Source of the DNA: Escherichia coli
GTDB taxonomy: Bacteria > Pseudomonadota > Gammaproteobacteria > Enterobacterales > Enterobacteriaceae
Length of the DNA stretch: 64,000 nucleotides
Reading direction: 5' to 3' (one strand)
NCBI RefSeq assembly: GCF_003334355.1
Contig: NZ_QOWP01000012.1
Positions 1 to 64,000 of the stretch are shown here, piece by piece. Position 1 is the first letter of the stretch; each line of letters opens with the position of its first letter. The notes under the pieces were generated by a model that saw only the letters and a program-made list of their open reading frames with translations, ran no database searches and was not told where the DNA came from. A program made the translations under genes and the position numbers.

Positions 1-1
1 A

Positions 2-1219
2 TTGATGTCGCTCGACACCGCGCTTAATGAGATGCTTTCTCGCGTTACCCCATTGACCACCCAGGAAACGCTGCCACTGGTACAGTGTTTTGGTCGTATT
101 CTGGCGAGCGATGTCGTTTCGCCGCTTGATGTTCCGGGGTTTGACAACTCCGCAATGGACGGCTACGCGGTGCGTTTAGCCGATATTGCCTCCGGGCAAC
201 CGCTGCCCGTTGCCGGTAAATCCTTTGCCGGTCAGCCATACCATGGTGAATGGCCTGCGGGCACCTGCATTCGTATTATGACCGGTGCGCCGGTGCCGGA
301 AGGCTGCGAAGCGGTGGTGATGCAGGAGCAGACTGAACAAACGGACAATGGCGTGCGTTTTACTGCTGAAGTGCGTAGCGGGCAAAATATTCGCCGTCGC
401 GGTGAAGATATCTCTGCAGGTGCGGTTGTTTTCCCGGCGGGAACTCGCCTGACTACCGCTGAACTGCCAGTGATTGCTTCACTGGGGATTGCCGAAGTTC
501 CGGTGATTCGTAAAGTGCGTGTAGCGCTTTTTTCTACCGGTGATGAACTCCAGTTGCCCGGTCAGCCACTGGGCGATGGCCAAATCTACGATACCAACCG
601 TCTCGCCGTACACCTGATGTTAGAACAGCTGGGTTGCGAGGTAATCAACTTAGGGATTATCCGCGACGATCCCCATGCCCTGCGCGCCGCATTTATTGAA
701 GCCGACAGCCAGGCGGATGTAGTGATCAGTTCCGGCGGTGTTTCAGTGGGTGAAGCGGATTACACCAAAACGATTCTTGAAGAGCTGGGGGAGATCGCCT
801 TCTGGAAGCTGGCGATTAAACCAGGTAAACCGTTCGCGTTCGGTAAACTCAGCAATAGCTGGTTCTGCGGCCTGCCGGGCAACCCGGTTTCAGCGACGCT
901 GACCTTCTATCAACTGGTACAGCCTTTGCTGGCAAAACTAAGCGGCAACACCGCCAGCGGCCTGCCCGCGCGCCAGCGCGTACGCACAGCGTCCCGCCTG
1001 AAAAAAACGCCAGGACGTCTTGATTTCCAGCGCGGCGTGCTGCACCGCAACGCCGATGGCGAACTGGAAGTGACGACCACCGGACATCAGGGCTCACATA
1101 TATTCAGCTCCTTTAGCCTCGGCAACTGCTTTATCGTACTGGAACGCGATCGCGGCAATGTGGAAGTGGGCGAATGGGTGGAAGTAGAACCGTTTAACGC
1201 GTTGTTCGGAGGCCTGTAA
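2..1219 (+). CDS. moeA: Molybdopterin molybdenumtransferase MoeA, 5'-truncated by the window edge
   Basis: ORF runs from the window start; translation recognised as MoeA lacking only the first few residues; stop overlaps the moeB start. Confidence 0.9.
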
Positions 1220-1968
1220 TGGCGGAACTCAGCGATCAGGAGATGCTGCGCTACAACCGGCAAATCATTCTGCGCGGTTTTGATTTTGACGGTCAGGAGG
1301 CGCTAAAAGATTCTCGTGTGCTGGTAGTCGGCCTCGGTGGACTCGGCTGCGCAGCTTCGCAGTATCTGGCAAGCGCCGGTGTCGGCAACCTGACGCTGCT
1401 CGACTTCGACTCGGTTTCGCTCTCGAATCTGCAACGCCAGACGCTGCACAGTGATGCCACGGTCGGGCAACCGAAGGTGGAATCCGCCCGTGACGCCCTG
1501 GCGCGGATCAATCCACATATCGCGATTACGCCAGTCAATGCACTGCTGGATGACGCAGAACTTGCAGCATTGATTGCTGAACACGATCTGGTGCTCGACT
1601 GTACGGATAACGTTGCGGTACGTAATCAACTGAACGCAGGCTGTTTTGCCGCGAAGGTGCCGCTGGTTTCCGGCGCGGCAATTCGTATGGAAGGGCAAAT
1701 CACGGTCTTCACTTATCAGGACGGCGAACCGTGCTATCGCTGCCTTAGCCGTTTGTTTGGCGAGAACGCATTAACCTGCGTAGAAGCAGGCGTGATGGCA
1801 CCGTTGATCGGCGTAATTGGTTCGTTGCAGGCAATGGAAGCGATCAAACTGCTGGCAGGTTATGGCAAACCGGCCAGCGGGAAAATCGTCATGTACGATG
1901 CGATGACCTGTCAGTTTCGCGAAATGAAACTGATGCGCAATCCGGGGTGTGAGGTGTGCGGGCAGTAA
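1219..1968 (+). CDS. moeB: Molybdopterin-synthase adenylyltransferase MoeB
   Basis: 249 aa ORF with ThiF/MoeB-type GxGxxG motif (VVGLGGLGC) and C-terminal CxxC pairs; start overlaps the moeA stop. Confidence 0.9.
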   Translation: MAELSDQEMLRYNRQIILRGFDFDGQEALKDSRVLVVGLGGLGCAASQYLASAGVGNLTLLDFDSVSLSNLQRQTLHSDATVGQPKVESARDALARINPHIAITPVNALLDDAELAALIAEHDLVLDCTDNVAVRNQLNAGCFAAKVPLVSGAAIRMEGQITVFTYQDGEPCYRCLSRLFGENALTCVEAGVMAPLIGVIGSLQAMEAIKLLAGYGKPASGKIVMYDAMTCQFREMKLMRNPGCEVCGQ

Positions 1969-1977
1969 TTGCCACCT

Positions 1978-2070
1978 CCAGGCCTGATAAGACGCGACAA
2001 GCGTCGCATCAGGCATTTGCTCCAGACGCCAGATGCGGCGTGAACGCCTTATCTGGCCTACGGTTCGGGC
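1978..2070. repeat. REP/BIME palindromic repeat cluster
   Basis: GCCTGATAAGACGCG...CGTCGCATCAGGC and GCCAGATGCGGCGTGAACGCCTTATCTGGCCTAC units typical of E. coli REP elements, between convergent moeB and fsaA. Confidence 0.7.
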
Positions 2071-2146
2071 ACAGATTTCCAAGCGCGGCAGGCATCGGTG
2101 CACTCCGCCACGTCATCAGCAATTTATGAGGATGCAGAACGTCCGG

Positions 2147-3844: not shown

Positions 3845-6277
3845 ATGACCACACTGAAACTGGACACGCTCAGCGACCGCATTAAAGCGCACAAAAATGC
3901 GCTGGTGCATATTGTGAAACCGCCAGTCTGTACCGAGCGCGCGCAGCACTATACCGAGATGTATCAACAACATCTCGATAAGCCGATCCCGGTACGTCGC
4001 GCGCTGGCACTGGCGCATCACCTGGCGAATCGCACCATCTGGATCAAACACGATGAGTTGATCATTGGCAACCAGGCAAGCGAAGTTCGCGCCGCGCCGA
4101 TCTTCCCGGAATATACTGTCTCGTGGATCGAAAAAGAGATTGATGATCTGGCAGATCGTCCCGGTGCTGGCTTTGCGGTGAGCGAAGAGAACAAACGCGT
4201 TCTGCATGAAGTGTGCCCGTGGTGGCGCGGTCAGACCGTACAGGATCGCTGCTACGGCATGTTTACCGATGAGCAAAAAGGTCTGCTGGCGACCGGAATC
4301 ATTAAAGCGGAAGGCAATATGACCTCCGGCGATGCGCACCTGGCGGTGAATTTCCCGCTGCTGCTGGAAAAAGGGCTTGATGGTCTGCGCGAGAAAGTAG
4401 CGGAACGTCGCTCGCGCATCAACCTGACGGTGCTGGAAGATTTACACGGTGAGCAATTCCTGAAAGCGATTGATATCGTGCTGGTGGCAGTCAGTGAACA
4501 CATTGAACGTTTCGCTGCCCTGGCGCGTGAAATGGCCGCGACCGAAACCCGCGAAAGCCGTCGCGATGAACTGCTGGCGATGGCAGAAAACTGCGATCTT
4601 ATCGCCCACCAGCCGCCGCAGACTTTCTGGCAGGCGCTGCAACTGTGTTACTTCATCCAGTTGATTTTGCAGATCGAATCTAACGGTCACTCAGTATCGT
4701 TTGGTCGTATGGACCAGTATCTCTACCCGTACTATCGCCGCGACGTTGAACTCAACCAGACGCTGGATCGCGAACACGCCATCGAGATGCTGCATAGCTG
4801 CTGGCTGAAACTGCTGGAAGTGAACAAGATCCGCTCCGGCTCACACTCAAAAGCCTCTGCGGGAAGTCCGCTGTATCAGAACGTCACTATTGGCGGGCAA
4901 AATCTGGTTGATGGTCAACCAATGGACGCGGTGAATCCACTCTCTTACGCGATCCTCGAATCCTGCGGTCGCCTGCGTTCCACTCAGCCTAACCTCAGCG
5001 TGCGTTACCATGCAGGAATGAGCAACGATTTCCTCGACGCCTGCGTACAGGTGATCCGTTGCGGCTTCGGGATGCCGGCGTTCAACAACGACGAAATCGT
5101 GATCCCGGAATTTATTAAACTCGGTATTGAACCGCAGGACGCTTATGACTACGCAGCGATTGGTTGTATAGAAACCGCCGTCGGTGGCAAATGGGGCTAT
5201 CGCTGTACCGGCATGAGCTTTATCAACTTCGCCCGCGTGATGCTGGCGGCGCTGGAAGGCGGGCATGATGCCACCAGCGGCAAAGTGTTCCTGCCACAAG
5301 AAAAAGCGTTGTCGGCAGGTAACTTCAACAACTTCGATGAAGTGATGGACGCGTGGGATACGCAAATCCGTTACTACACCCGCAAATCAATCGAAATCGA
5401 ATATGTCGTCGACACCATGCTGGAAGAGAACGTGCACGATATTCTCTGCTCGGCGCTGGTGGATGACTGTATTGAGCGAGCGAAAAGTATCAAGCAAGGC
5501 GGCGCGAAATATGACTGGGTTTCTGGCCTGCAGGTCGGCATTGCCAACCTCGGCAACAGCCTGGCGGCAGTGAAGAAACTGGTGTTTGAACAAGGTGCGA
5601 TTGGTCAGCAACAGCTTGCTGCCGCACTGGCAGATGACTTCGACGGCCTGACTCACGAGCAGCTGCGTCAGCGGCTGATTAACGGTGCGCCGAAGTACGG
5701 CAACGACGATGATACTGTCGATACGCTGCTGGCTCGCGCTTATCAGACCTATATCGACGAACTGAAACAGTACCATAATCCGCGCTACGGTCGTGGTCCG
5801 GTTGGCGGCAACTATTACGCGGGTACGTCATCAATCTCCGCTAACGTACCGTTTGGCGCGCAGACTATGGCAACACCGGACGGGCGTAAAGCCCACACCC
5901 CGCTGGCAGAAGGCGCAAGCCCGGCCTCCGGTACTGACCATCTTGGCCCTACTGCGGTCATTGGCTCAGTGGGTAAACTGCCTACGGCAGCGATTCTCGG
6001 CGGCGTGTTGCTCAACCAGAAACTGAATCCGGCAACGCTGGAGAACGAATCTGACAAGCAGAAACTGATGATCCTGCTGCGTACCTTCTTTGAAGTGCAT
6101 AAAGGCTGGCATATTCAGTACAACATCGTTTCCCGCGAAACGCTGCTGGATGCGAAAAAACATCCCGATCAGTATCGCGATCTGGTAGTGCGTGTCGCGG
6201 GCTATTCCGCGTTCTTCACCGCGCTCTCTCCAGACGCTCAGGACGATATCATCGCCCGTACTGAACATATGCTGTAA
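3845..6277 (+). CDS. ybiW: Glycyl radical enzyme, pyruvate formate-lyase family
   Basis: 810 aa ORF with C-terminal glycyl radical motif RVAGYSAFF; length matches YbiW. Confidence 0.9.
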   Translation: MTTLKLDTLSDRIKAHKNALVHIVKPPVCTERAQHYTEMYQQHLDKPIPVRRALALAHHLANRTIWIKHDELIIGNQASEVRAAPIFPEYTVSWIEKEIDDLADRPGAGFAVSEENKRVLHEVCPWWRGQTVQDRCYGMFTDEQKGLLATGIIKAEGNMTSGDAHLAVNFPLLLEKGLDGLREKVAERRSRINLTVLEDLHGEQFLKAIDIVLVAVSEHIERFAALAREMAATETRESRRDELLAMAENCDLIAHQPPQTFWQALQLCYFIQLILQIESNGHSVSFGRMDQYLYPYYRRDVELNQTLDREHAIEMLHSCWLKLLEVNKIRSGSHSKASAGSPLYQNVTIGGQNLVDGQPMDAVNPLSYAILESCGRLRSTQPNLSVRYHAGMSNDFLDACVQVIRCGFGMPAFNNDEIVIPEFIKLGIEPQDAYDYAAIGCIETAVGGKWGYRCTGMSFINFARVMLAALEGGHDATSGKVFLPQEKALSAGNFNNFDEVMDAWDTQIRYYTRKSIEIEYVVDTMLEENVHDILCSALVDDCIERAKSIKQGGAKYDWVSGLQVGIANLGNSLAAVKKLVFEQGAIGQQQLAAALADDFDGLTHEQLRQRLINGAPKYGNDDDTVDTLLARAYQTYIDELKQYHNPRYGRGPVGGNYYAGTSSISANVPFGAQTMATPDGRKAHTPLAEGASPASGTDHLGPTAVIGSVGKLPTAAILGGVLLNQKLNPATLENESDKQKLMILLRTFFEVHKGWHIQYNIVSRETLLDAKKHPDQYRDLVVRVAGYSAFFTALSPDAQDDIIARTEHML

Positions 6278-10706: not shown

Positions 10707-11627
10707 ATGAATATGAAATTGAAAACATTATTCGCAGCGGCCTTCGCTGTTGTCGGCTTTTGCAGTACCGCCTCTGCGGTAACTTATCCTCTGCCAACCG
10801 ACGGGAGTCGCCTGGTTGGTCAGAATCAGGTGATCACCATTCCTGAAGGTAACACTCAGCCGCTGGAGTATTTTGCCGCCGAGTACCAGATGGGGCTTTC
10901 CAATATGATGGAAGCGAACCCGGGTGTGGATACCTTCCTGCCGAAAGGCGGTACTGTACTGAACATTCCGCAGCAGCTGATCCTGCCGGATACCGTTCAT
11001 GAAGGCATCGTCATTAACAGTGCTGAGATGCGTCTTTATTACTATCCGAAAGGGACCAACACCGTTATCGTGCTGCCGATCGGCATTGGTCAGTTAGGCA
11101 AAGATACGCCTATCAACTGGACCACCAAAGTTGAGCGTAAAAAAGCAGGCCCGACCTGGACGCCGACCGCCAAAATGCACGCAGAGTACCGCGCTGCGGG
11201 CGAACCGCTTCCGGCTGTCGTTCCGGCAGGTCCGGATAACCCGATGGGGCTGTATGCACTCTATATCGGTCGCCTGTATGCTATCCATGGCACCAACGCC
11301 AACTTCGGTATCGGCCTGCGTGTAAGTCATGGTTGTGTGCGTCTGCGTAACGAAGACATCAAATTCCTGTTCGAGAAAGTACCGGTCGGTACCCGCGTAC
11401 AGTTTATTGATGAGCCGGTAAAAGCGACCACCGAGCCAGACGGCAGCCGTTATATTGAAGTCCATAACCCGCTGTCTACCACCGAAGCCCAGTTTGAAGG
11501 TCAGGAAATTGTGCCAATTACCCTGACGAAGAGCGTGCAGACAGTGACCGGTCAGCCAGATGTTGACCAGGTTGTTCTTGATGAAGCGATTAAAAACCGC
11601 TCCGGGATGCCGGTTCGTCTGAATTAA
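10707..11627 (+). CDS. ldtB: L,D-transpeptidase (YkuD domain with signal peptide)
   Basis: 306 aa ORF with signal peptide and catalytic SHGCVRL motif. Confidence 0.9.
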
Positions 11628-28789: not shown

Positions 28790-28915
28790 GTAGGACGGAT
28801 AAGGCGTTTACGCCGCATCCGGCAACAGATGCCTGATGCGACGCTACCGCGTCTTATCAGGCCTACAAAATCCGAACCGTTGGACGGATCAGGCGTTTAC
28901 GCTACGTCCAGCACA
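28790..28915. repeat. REP/BIME repeat cluster (three REP units)
   Basis: GGACGGATAAGGCGTTTACGCCGCATCCGGC, GCCTGATGCGACGCTACCGCGTCTTATCAGGCCTAC and GGACGGATCAGGCGTTTACGCTACGTCC units. Confidence 0.7.
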
Positions 28916-48417: not shown

Positions 48418-49407
48418 TTAGCCGCCAATGTACGATAAGTTTTGCGTAATACCGGTGTTGTTTTGATGCAGGAAATGGGTCTGTTTCTTCTCCCGCAGCG
48501 CCGCTGAAATACGCGCTTCCAGCGCCTGTTGCTGGGTATCGTCTTCCAGCAGATCGCGCAGGTTAACGCCGCCTTCACCAAACAGGCAGAGATGGAGTTT
48601 ACCAATAGAGGAAACGCGCAGGCGGTTGCAAGTGGCGCAGAAGTCTTTTTCATACGGCATGATAAGGCCAATCTCTCCGGCGTAATCTGGATGGCAAAAG
48701 ACTTGCGCGGGACCGTCGCTGCGTTGACGTAATTGGTGGATCCAGCCGCGACGCAGTAGCTCGTCACGCAGAACCTGACCAGAGATGTGATGCTTACGGA
48801 AGAGCTCGCTGCCCTCGCCCGTTTCCATCAGTTCGATGAAACGCAGCTGGATAGGGCGATGCTGGATCCAGTTCAGAAAGGTGTCGAGCTGGTGATGATT
48901 AACATCACGCATCAGCACGGTATTGACTTTGACCTTCTCAAAACCGGCCTCAAATGCAGCATCAATCCCTGCCATGACCTGGTTGAATTTATCCTGCCCG
49001 GTAATAGCGTGAAACTGGCGGGCGTCCAGACTGTCGACACTGACGTTAATGCCAGTAAGTCCCGCATCGCGCCAGTTCGCCACATCGCGTTCCAGACGGT
49101 AACCATTGGTTGTGACCGCAATCTGGCGGATAGCGTCGTTTTCCCGCACAGCGGCGATGATATCGGTAAAGTCGCGGCGTAAAGACGGCTCTCCTCCTGT
49201 CAGGCGCACTTTTTCGGTGCCCAGACTGGCGAAGGCGCGCGTAACCCGGCGAATTTCATCGACGGTAAGAAAGCCTTTATTGGTGACGCCGCTCGGTTTG
49301 TAGCCATCCGGCAGGCAGTAGGTGCAACGAAAGTTACACACATCGGTAATCGACAGGCGCAAGTAGTAAAACTTACGCGCAAATGCATCAGTCAGTTGTG
49401 AAGCCAT
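48418..49407 (-). CDS. moaA: GTP 3',8-cyclase MoaA (radical SAM)
   Basis: Translation from [31 protein letters not shown] gives 329 aa with CxxxCxxC; the ORF-track 27-aa extension lies in the leader and is rejected. Confidence 0.9.
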
Positions 49408-49560
49408 GTACACCTTTCCAGATACGGGAGGCGAAGTCATTTCTTCCTTCGCCCTGGTGGCAATCTTTACGAGCATTGTCACGGCCAAAGCACCGTATCA
49501 GTTGACCCAGGTGCAGAGGCTAGAGTGTTTAGTGGTTATGCCGATACTAGCGTGTAAATG
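49408..49560 (-). ncRNA. moaA 5' leader, candidate Moco riboswitch (cis-regulatory RNA)
   Basis: Structured, conserved-looking leader directly upstream of moaA; assigned from established knowledge that the E. coli moaA leader carries the Moco RNA motif. Boundaries are approximate. Confidence 0.5.
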
Positions 49561-58541: not shown

Positions 58542-59018
58542 ATGAAACTCATCAGTAACGATCTGCGCAATGGCGATAAATTGCCGCATCGTCATGTCTT
58601 TAACGGCATGGGTTACGATGGCGATAATATTTCACCGCATCTGGCGTGGGATGATGTTCCTGCGGGAACGAAAAGTTTTGTTGTCACCTGCTACGACCCG
58701 GATGCGCCAACCGGCTCCGGCTGGTGGCACTGGGTAGTTGTTAACTTACCCGCTGATACCCGCGTATTACCGCAAGGGTTTGGCTCTGGTCTGGTAGCAA
58801 TGCCAGACGGCGTTTTGCAGACGCGTACCGACTTTGGTAAAACCGGGTACGATGGCGCAGCACCGCCGAAAGGCGAAACTCATCGCTACATTTTTACCGT
58901 TCACGCGCTGGATATAGAACGTATTGATGTCGATGAAGGTGCCAGCGGCGCGATGGTCGGGTTTAACGTTCATTTCCACTCTCTGGCAAGCGCCTCGATT
59001 ACTGCGATGTTTAGTTAA
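58542..59018 (+). CDS. ybhB: PEBP-family protein (kinase inhibitor homolog)
   Basis: 158 aa ORF recognised as YbhB. Confidence 0.85.
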   Translation: MKLISNDLRNGDKLPHRHVFNGMGYDGDNISPHLAWDDVPAGTKSFVVTCYDPDAPTGSGWWHWVVVNLPADTRVLPQGFGSGLVAMPDGVLQTRTDFGKTGYDGAAPPKGETHRYIFTVHALDIERIDVDEGASGAMVGFNVHFHSLASASITAMFS

Positions 59019-59105
59019 TCACTCTGCCAGATGGCGCAATGCCATCTGGTATCACTTAAAGGTATTAAAAACAACTTTTTGTCTTTTTACCTTCCCGTTT
59101 CGCTC

Positions 59106-59125
59106 AAGTTAGTATAAAAAAGCAG
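59106..59125. other. Phage lambda attachment site attB (core), unoccupied
   Basis: CAAGTTAGTATAAAAAAGCAG is the reverse complement of CTGCTTTTTTATACTAACTTG, containing the 15-bp lambda att core GCTTTTTTATACTAA, in the ybhB-ybhC intergenic region with no phage DNA adjacent. Confidence 0.7.
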
Positions 59126-59169
59126 GCTTCAACGGATTCATTTTTCTATTTCATAGCCCGGAGCAACCT

Positions 59170-60453
59170 GTGAACACATTTTCAGTTTCCCGTCTGGCGC
59201 TGGCATTGGCTTTTGGCGTGACGCTGACCGCCTGTAGCTCAACCCCGCCCGATCAACGTCCTTCTGATCAAACCGCGCCTGGTACCTCTTCTCGCCCGAT
59301 TCTGTCGGCAAAAGAAGCGCAGAATTTCGATGCTCAACACTATTTTGCATCCCTGACACCAGGTGCTGCAGCGTGGAATCCTTCCCCGATTACCCTGCCT
59401 GCGCAACCTGAATTTGTTGTCGGCCCGGCGGGCACTCAAGGTGTAACGCATACCACGATTCAGGCGGCGGTAGATGCGGCAATTATCAAGCGTACCAACA
59501 AGCGCCAATATATTGCCGTGATGCCTGGTGAGTATCAGGGAACGGTATATGTCCCTGCCGCTCCGGGTGGAATTACTCTGTACGGTACAGGTGAAAAACC
59601 GATTGATGTGAAGATTGGGCTTTCCCTTGATGGTGGCATGAGCCCTGCCGACTGGCGTCACGACGTCAACCCGCGCGGCAAATATATGCCAGGTAAACCA
59701 GCGTGGTATATGTACGATAGCTGCCAGAGCAAACGCAGCGACAGTATCGGTGTTCTCTGCTCTGCGGTCTTCTGGTCACAAAACAATGGCCTGCAACTGC
59801 AAAATCTGACCATCGAAAACACGCTGGGCGATATCGTAGATGCAGGTAACCATCCGGCGGTGGCACTGCGTACTGATGGTGACCAGGTACAGATTAACAA
59901 CGTTAACATTCTCGGTCGTCAGAACACCTTCTTTGTCACCAACAGCGGTGTGCAGAACCGTCTGGAAACGAATCGTCAGCCGCGTACGCTGGTGACCAAC
60001 AGCTACATTGAAGGGGATGTGGATATCGTTTCTGGTCGCGGCGCAGTGGTGTTCGATAACACCGAATTCCGCGTGGTGAACTCACGTACTCAGCAAGAAG
60101 CGTATGTGTTTGCACCGGCTACGCTGTCCAACATTTACTACGGTTTCCTCGCCGTAAACAGCCGTTTCAATGCTTTCGGTGATGGTGTGGCGCAACTGGG
60201 CCGCTCGCTGGATGTTGATGCCAATACCAACGGTCAGGTGGTGATCCGTGATAGCGCCATCAACGAAGGTTTTAACACGGCTAAACCGTGGGCCGATGCG
60301 GTGATCTCTAATCGTCCGTTTGCGGGTAATACCGGCAGCGTAGATGATAACGACGAAATACAGCGCAATCTGAATGACACTAACTACAACCGCATGTGGG
60401 AATACAATAACCGCGGCGTGGGTAGTAAAGTGGTTGCAGAGGCGAAGAAGTAA
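59170..60453 (+). CDS. ybhC: Outer membrane lipoprotein, pectinesterase-like
   Basis: 427 aa ORF with lipoprotein signal peptide and lipobox (LTAC). Confidence 0.85.
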   Translation: MNTFSVSRLALALAFGVTLTACSSTPPDQRPSDQTAPGTSSRPILSAKEAQNFDAQHYFASLTPGAAAWNPSPITLPAQPEFVVGPAGTQGVTHTTIQAAVDAAIIKRTNKRQYIAVMPGEYQGTVYVPAAPGGITLYGTGEKPIDVKIGLSLDGGMSPADWRHDVNPRGKYMPGKPAWYMYDSCQSKRSDSIGVLCSAVFWSQNNGLQLQNLTIENTLGDIVDAGNHPAVALRTDGDQVQINNVNILGRQNTFFVTNSGVQNRLETNRQPRTLVTNSYIEGDVDIVSGRGAVVFDNTEFRVVNSRTQQEAYVFAPATLSNIYYGFLAVNSRFNAFGDGVAQLGRSLDVDANTNGQVVIRDSAINEGFNTAKPWADAVISNRPFAGNTGSVDDNDEIQRNLNDTNYNRMWEYNNRGVGSKVVAEAKK

Positions 60454-60461
60454 GAGCAATT

Positions 60462-60686
<225 letters not shown>

Positions 60687-63842: not shown

Positions 63843-64000
63843 CTGAGAGATCCCCTCATAATTTCCCCAAAACGTAACCATGTGTGAATAGATTTTGAGT
63901 AAGCAGGGTTGCAGCCACGAGTGAGTCTTCCCTTGTTATTGTGTAGCCAGAATGCCGCAAAACTTCCATGCCTAAGCGAACTGTTGAGAGTACGTTTCGA
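63843..64000 (-). mobile_element. IS10-family (IS4 superfamily) insertion sequence, inside end and 3' part; continues beyond the window
   Basis: Terminus CTGAGAGATCCCCTCATAATTTCCCC matches the IS10 inside end as I recall it; adjacent minus-strand frame encodes the IS10-type transposase C-terminus. Confidence 0.8.
63856..64000 (-). CDS. IS10-type transposase, C-terminal 47 codons (5' part outside the window)
   Basis: Minus-strand translation RNVLSTVRLGMEVLRHSGYTITREDSLVAATLLTQNLFTHGYVLGKL-stop, near-identical to the IS10 transposase C-terminus as I recall it. Confidence 0.75.
   Translation of the reverse strand, partial: RNVLSTVRLGMEVLRHSGYTITREDSLVAATLLTQNLFTHGYVLGKL

Follow-up and report, generated by a model that had tools for sequence, protein, structure and literature searches.

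An empty primary lambda attachment site in the ybhB-ybhC spacer of an Escherichia coli chromosome

The integrase (Int) of phage lambda is a tyrosine recombinase that, together with IHF, forms an intasome on the phage attachment site attP and captures a protein-free bacterial site, attB. Four Int catalytic domains bind the half-sites C, C', B and B', and the first strand exchange at one edge of the overlap region creates a Holliday junction that is resolved when the other pair of strands is exchanged at the other edge, for which identity of the overlap is required in both recombination partners. Excision also needs Xis and restores attB exactly, without a scar, and a cured strain and a strain that was never lysogenised are therefore indistinguishable by sequence. 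Lambda attB has been placed between ybhC and ybhB (PMC3467070), and this intergenic site, called ‘the phage lambda locus’, is among the Escherichia loci with the most genomic islands (PMC9580842).

Here we describe this locus in a stretch of 64,000 nucleotides from an E. coli assembly (GCF_003334355.1, contig NZ_QOWP01000012.1), hereafter the window. The closest described system is the attB of E. coli K-12, in the gal-bio interval between ybhC and ybhB, and its 21-bp BOB' sequence and the 151-bp spacer around it are identical to those of the window, with the same flanking genes in the same orientation. We read positions 59105..59125 (minus strand) as the primary lambda attB (BOB') in its empty state, within the ybhB-ybhC spacer of the E. 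coli chromosome, with a probability of about 97%, and none of the results speaks against this reading. An empty lambda attB at this place is an already known, textbook feature and an ordinary landmark, and its significance is one of annotation only, with no new biology.

The second comparison is with the phage partner. Lambda attP (POP', NC_001416 27583..27854) has the same 15-bp core as the window, GCTTTTTTATACTAA, with the 7-bp overlap inside it, and the window core is identical to the annotated lambda recombination site at NC_001416 27724..27738. Outside the core the two diverge immediately, as expected for attB compared with attP: the phage site has long arms in which the Int binding sites int 1, 2 and 4 are annotated, whereas the window has no arm sequence, and the half-sites of attP are CAGCTTT (C) and TAAGTTG (C') where the window has CTGCTTT (B) and TAACTTG (B'). 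A phage collection contains 46 records with at least 80% of the lambda attP region, including HK630, HK629, HK97, 434 and HK106, and several of these are annotated with the lambda core. The bacterial site is therefore common to a group of lambdoid phages rather than exclusive to lambda.

Anatomy and setting of the site

The minimal attB is present in the window as an exact match to the 21-bp sequence CTGCTTTTTTATACTAACTTG at 59105..59125 on the minus strand, and within it the common core GCTTTTTTATACTAA is found at 59109..59123 (minus strand) without mismatches and in one copy. The sequence-only reading had reported an uninterrupted core on the minus strand within 59100..59130, which these coordinates bear out, and the exact search for the 21-bp BOB' sequence that it had proposed as a check succeeded. 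The 21-mer is the sole match in the window even when up to three mismatches are allowed, and none of 100 dinucleotide-preserving shuffles matched it. The core likewise remains a single match at up to two mismatches, for which the expectation is 0.10 per shuffle. When the whole window was searched for secondary att-like sites with the 15-mer at three mismatches, only 11132..11146 was found besides attB itself; this is at chance level, with at least two matches in 46 of 100 shuffles.

Three 7-bp elements can be read directly from the minus strand. The sequence CTGCTTT at 59119..59125, on the ybhC or gal side, is what we take to be the B half-site, a core-type Int binding site. It is followed by TTTATAC at 59112..59118, the overlap region O, in which lambda Int is known to make its staggered strand exchanges, and by the second core-type Int binding site, the B' half-site TAACTTG at 59105..59111 on the ybhB or bio side. 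Two inverted half-sites thus flank the overlap in an exact 21-mer. The core is uninterrupted and bordered by the B and B' arms of the bacterium, whose sequence is the same as in K-12, and phage-type arm sequence beside the core is absent, as befits a simple site. With its single core and two bacterial arms, the window does not contain the attL and attR of an occupied site. The core falls on the minus strand because the window runs from bio to gal, and the core is conventionally written from gal to bio.

Both neighbouring genes are intact and translate without interruption. On the bio side, ybhB (58542..59018, plus strand) encodes 158 aa annotated as ‘kinase inhibitor’; on the gal side, ybhC (59170..60453, plus strand) encodes 427 aa annotated as ‘putative acyl-CoA thioester hydrolase’, with an N-terminus that resembles a lipoprotein signal. 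These open reading frames carry names taken from the RefSeq annotation of E. coli records that are 99.8-99.9% identical, identified by megablast against 5,426 complete E. coli genomes. A REP-derived element at 60522..60592, just past ybhC, accounts for the numerous repeat BLAST hits per genome in that search. From the open reading frames and the RefSeq annotation, the spacer between the two genes spans 59019..59169 and is 151 bp long, as it is in RefSeq K-12 MG1655; the sequence-only reading had located the site correctly between ybhB and ybhC and had put the spacer at 150 bp, one base short.

Upstream of ybhB lies bioA (plus strand), directly adjacent, with bioBFCD (minus strand) beyond it, and the bio operon occupies approximately 53.6-58.5 kb. 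The gal operon is outside the window, which ends 4.9 kb past attB; in K-12, galE begins approximately 15 kb past attB. We infer the ‘gal-bio neighbourhood’ named in the sequence-only reading from gene order, with the bio half in the window and the gal half beyond its end. As a landmark, attB fixes the map position and orientation of the window, with bio at low and gal at high coordinates, the reverse of the standard gal-to-bio reading.

The spacer is the most AT-rich part of the neighbourhood, with a GC content of 0.31 at 59050..59149. It contains a hairpin with an 11-bp stem and no U-tract at 59025..59051 (plus strand; fold -19.4 kcal/mol, z -4.68), which begins 7 nt past the ybhB stop codon and lies outside attB. 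A consensus terminator scan of 58900..59300 did not call this hairpin and gave no canonical terminator; the structure could be a terminator or an mRNA-stabilising element. Over the same interval, 58900..59300, a scan for sigma-70-like promoters found none, and an Rfam scan of the whole window returned no family inside the ybhB-ybhC spacer, its matches (Moco riboswitch, REP-derived elements) being elsewhere.

The site is empty in a K-12-like segment

Alignment of the window with 86 kb of K-12 by BLAST is continuous from moeA at the window start to ybhI at the window end, the exceptions being approximately 100 bp at 1997..2099 and the final 158 bp. Between 58570 and 59411, an interval that includes the whole spacer, there are zero mismatches to K-12 MG1655. 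Prophage genes are absent from the window, that is, from 59 kb on one side of attB and 4.9 kb on the other. The site is unoccupied because both arms are bacterial and the alignment with K-12 runs through without phage DNA, and emptiness is supported by the exact 21-bp BOB', the single core and the lack of flanking prophage genes in that alignment. The earlier statement that the host is not a lambda lysogen at the primary site is upheld on this evidence. It covers this assembled sequence and is compatible with prophages elsewhere in the genome or at secondary sites.

This strain thus has no prophage at an integration site that ranks among the most heavily used in the species, and its attB should be a free target for tools that integrate at lambda att (CRIM-type plasmids, lambda lysogenisation). 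Upon infection by a lambda-type phage, attB would play a passive part, as a bare site captured by an Int/IHF complex assembled on the approximately 240-bp phage attP. Strand exchange would proceed in two successive steps, one pair at each edge of the overlap region, and the product would be a prophage with attL (B-O-P') beside ybhC and attR (P-O-B') beside ybhB. The protein contacts, cleavage positions and order of strand exchange at this particular site would be those established for lambda.

Outside attB, the window is 97.5-99.9% identical to K-12 in patches; its ybhI is interrupted by an ISVsa5 end, and there is an extra REP element at 1981..2058. Differences from K-12 MG1655 are spread very unevenly: the moeA-moeB region at 1..1996 is 97.5% identical, and mismatches cluster at 38-40, 42-44, 55-58 kb (bioF-bioB-bioA) and 61-63 kb (ybhJ), with 0-4 per kb elsewhere, mostly 0-2. 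The pattern resembles a recombination mosaic in a strain closely related to K-12. The segment at 1981..2099, between moeB and fsa, comprises approximately 100 bp of REP-type palindromes that are absent from K-12; Rfam assigns 1981..2058 to naRNA4 (REP-derived), and similar REP-derived matches occur at 28793..28863 and 60522..60592. Upstream of moaA, as in K-12, lies a molybdenum cofactor riboswitch (49395..49539, minus strand; Rfam RF01055, 103.6 bits).

The final 158 bp of the window (63843..64000) are the end of an IS4-family ISVsa5 element (IS10-like), starting CTGAGAGATCCCC, which interrupts ybhI 4.7 kb from attB and matches plasmid-borne ISVsa5 copies of E. coli with 100% identity. The sequence-only reading had advised looking for phage genes in the flanks; none are there, and foreign DNA is nevertheless present in the form of this insertion sequence end at 63843. 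Among 5,426 complete E. coli genomes, not one shares the exact ISVsa5-ybhI junction; in strain MB53, ISVsa5 has inserted into ybhI independently, 456 bp further on.

Occupied and intact junctions across E. coli

Of 5425 complete E. coli genomes, 3488 (64%) have an uninterrupted match to a 301-bp junction probe centred on the core, and in approximately 36% the junction is not intact. We sampled 40 rows spread evenly down the ranking, which gave 26 intact and 14 non-intact junctions. In 13 of the 14, the match starts only at probe position 140 (window position 59105, the edge of BOB'), and the second half of the junction is found at another place in the same record; the combination of a break at 59105 and a second place in the record therefore indicates insertion at the core. 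One genome, H55 (NZ_CP148116.1; E. coli, 4.64 Mb), matches only from probe position 157 (window position 59122) and has no second place, which suggests a deletion or an engineered replacement on the ybhB side of attB.

Two occupied genomes were opened, O157:H7 strain 3-5-1 and E. coli B strain C2566. In both, an excisionase gene (xis) and a 1071-nt tyrosine integrase gene (int) adjoin ybhC, and the O157 Int is identical to lambda Int at 353 of 356 positions. In E. coli B, the remnant (defective) prophage lies between two exact core copies in direct orientation, 12,090 bp apart. A four-way alignment gives B-O-B' for the window, B-O-P' for attL, P-O-B' for attR and P-O-P' for lambda; at the left junction of E. 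coli B (B-O-P') the P' arm is identical to that of lambda, and the right junction reads P-O-B'. The crossover in natural lysogens accordingly falls within the core. Position, core, B arm with ybhC and B' arm with ybhB are as in the window; what differs is that the occupied loci have a duplicated core with prophage DNA between the copies, whereas the window has one core and two bacterial arms. The B half-site is kept at attL beside ybhC in the occupied genomes, and E. coli B keeps the B' half-site at attR beside ybhB, apart from a single base.

By genome comparison, then, prophages that bear lambda-type int and xis together with P/P' arms occupy this position in about one-third of complete E. 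coli genomes, and the window shows a site of natural use by lambda-type phages in its pre-integration (or post-excision) form. The change in the B' arm of C2566 is a T in place of C at the first base after the core (L006 12383). The same strain has a deletion from just past ybhC to the middle of galM, where a gene fragment of 102 nt directly adjoins a partial galM (L005 7490..8210).

The two states named above differ in history, and the site could be empty through precise excision of a former prophage, in a cured lysogen, instead of never having been occupied. Occupancy is common (approximately 36% of complete genomes), Int/Xis excision is established to be scarless, and the patchy divergence from K-12 near the locus, with its clusters in bioF-bioA and ybhJ, fits recombination traffic. 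However, the window has no remnant phage DNA, its spacer is identical to that of K-12, and both histories yield the same sequence, leaving the identity of the feature unaffected. We consider a cured lysogen rather unlikely and retain the reading of an empty attB under either history.

Another possibility is that the sequence is kept mainly for the host, for example as a promoter or 5' leader of ybhC, and that phages merely exploit it. The core lies 46 bp upstream of the ybhC start codon, ybhB and ybhC point in the same direction, and the sampled intact genomes share at least 97.7% identity over the 301-bp junction. Yet the flanking genes are conserved to at least the same level, and there is therefore no sign of special constraint; moreover, the scans above found neither a sigma-70-like promoter nor a canonical terminator nor an Rfam family in the spacer and thus gave no positive sign of a host role for attB itself, and approximately one-third of complete genomes tolerate phage DNA in place of everything upstream of the core. 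A primarily host-serving sequence thus seems improbable, and more doubtful still is a related idea, in which the attB spacer doubles as the regulatory region of ybhC, prophage occupancy rewires ybhC expression and the empty site is the ‘native’ state. That idea draws on geometry, namely the core 46 bp upstream of ybhC and the direction of int, which in lysogens reads toward ybhC and in the same direction as it.

The 21-mer beyond E. coli

The exact 21-mer was also scanned against 100,044 species-representative genomes, one per species. No Escherichia representative matched in this one-genome-per-species set, which thereby gives no measure of conservation outside E. coli; in the single E. coli representative, the site is presumably occupied or variant. 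The only matches were one in a Bacillales metagenome-assembled genome and three copies in Ferroplasma acidarmanus, and all of them share 23 bp with the window, at first sight more than chance would give. The Bacillales match (CALGNF010000177.1, L008 3183..3205) is a 23-bp exact match within the signal-peptide code VLACFFILTCGAC of a predicted lipoprotein of 476 aa and is a coincidence in hydrophobic-coding or AT-rich sequence. Vector contamination and a shared att site were considered for both organisms and rejected, given that the contexts are coding sequence in the one and a repeat with unrelated flanks in the other; neither match affects the finding in E. coli.

The 15-mer of the window might itself be a chance match in AT-rich intergenic DNA, with no tie to lambda integration. 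The spacer is indeed AT-rich (GC 0.31), three-mismatch matches in the window occur at chance level, and the exact 21-mer does arise coincidentally, as the Bacillales signal-peptide code and the short Ferroplasma repeat show. Against this, the window match is exact over 21 bp, was reproduced by no shuffle and sits in the canonical gene context, and the comparative data refute the notion outright, with natural lambda-type prophages at precisely this position in approximately one-third of complete E. coli genomes. We regard a chance origin as vanishingly improbable, and the assignment of the site as lambda attB stands.

The Ferroplasma matches belong to a 29-bp repeat, TGCCTGCTTTTTTATACTAACTTGACCCC, of which F. 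acidarmanus Fer1 (NC_021592.1) has three exact copies with unrelated flanks (L009 1952..1980 and 4391..4419, minus strand; L010 4721..4749, plus strand). The repeat is identical to E. coli attB at 24 of its 29 bp, a resemblance that is probably coincidental. Two of the copies are direct repeats 2.4 kb apart around a 289-aa open reading frame, and the third is inverted and approximately 42 kb off. One copy encodes the C-terminus, MPAFLY followed by the stop codon, of a 70-aa open reading frame.
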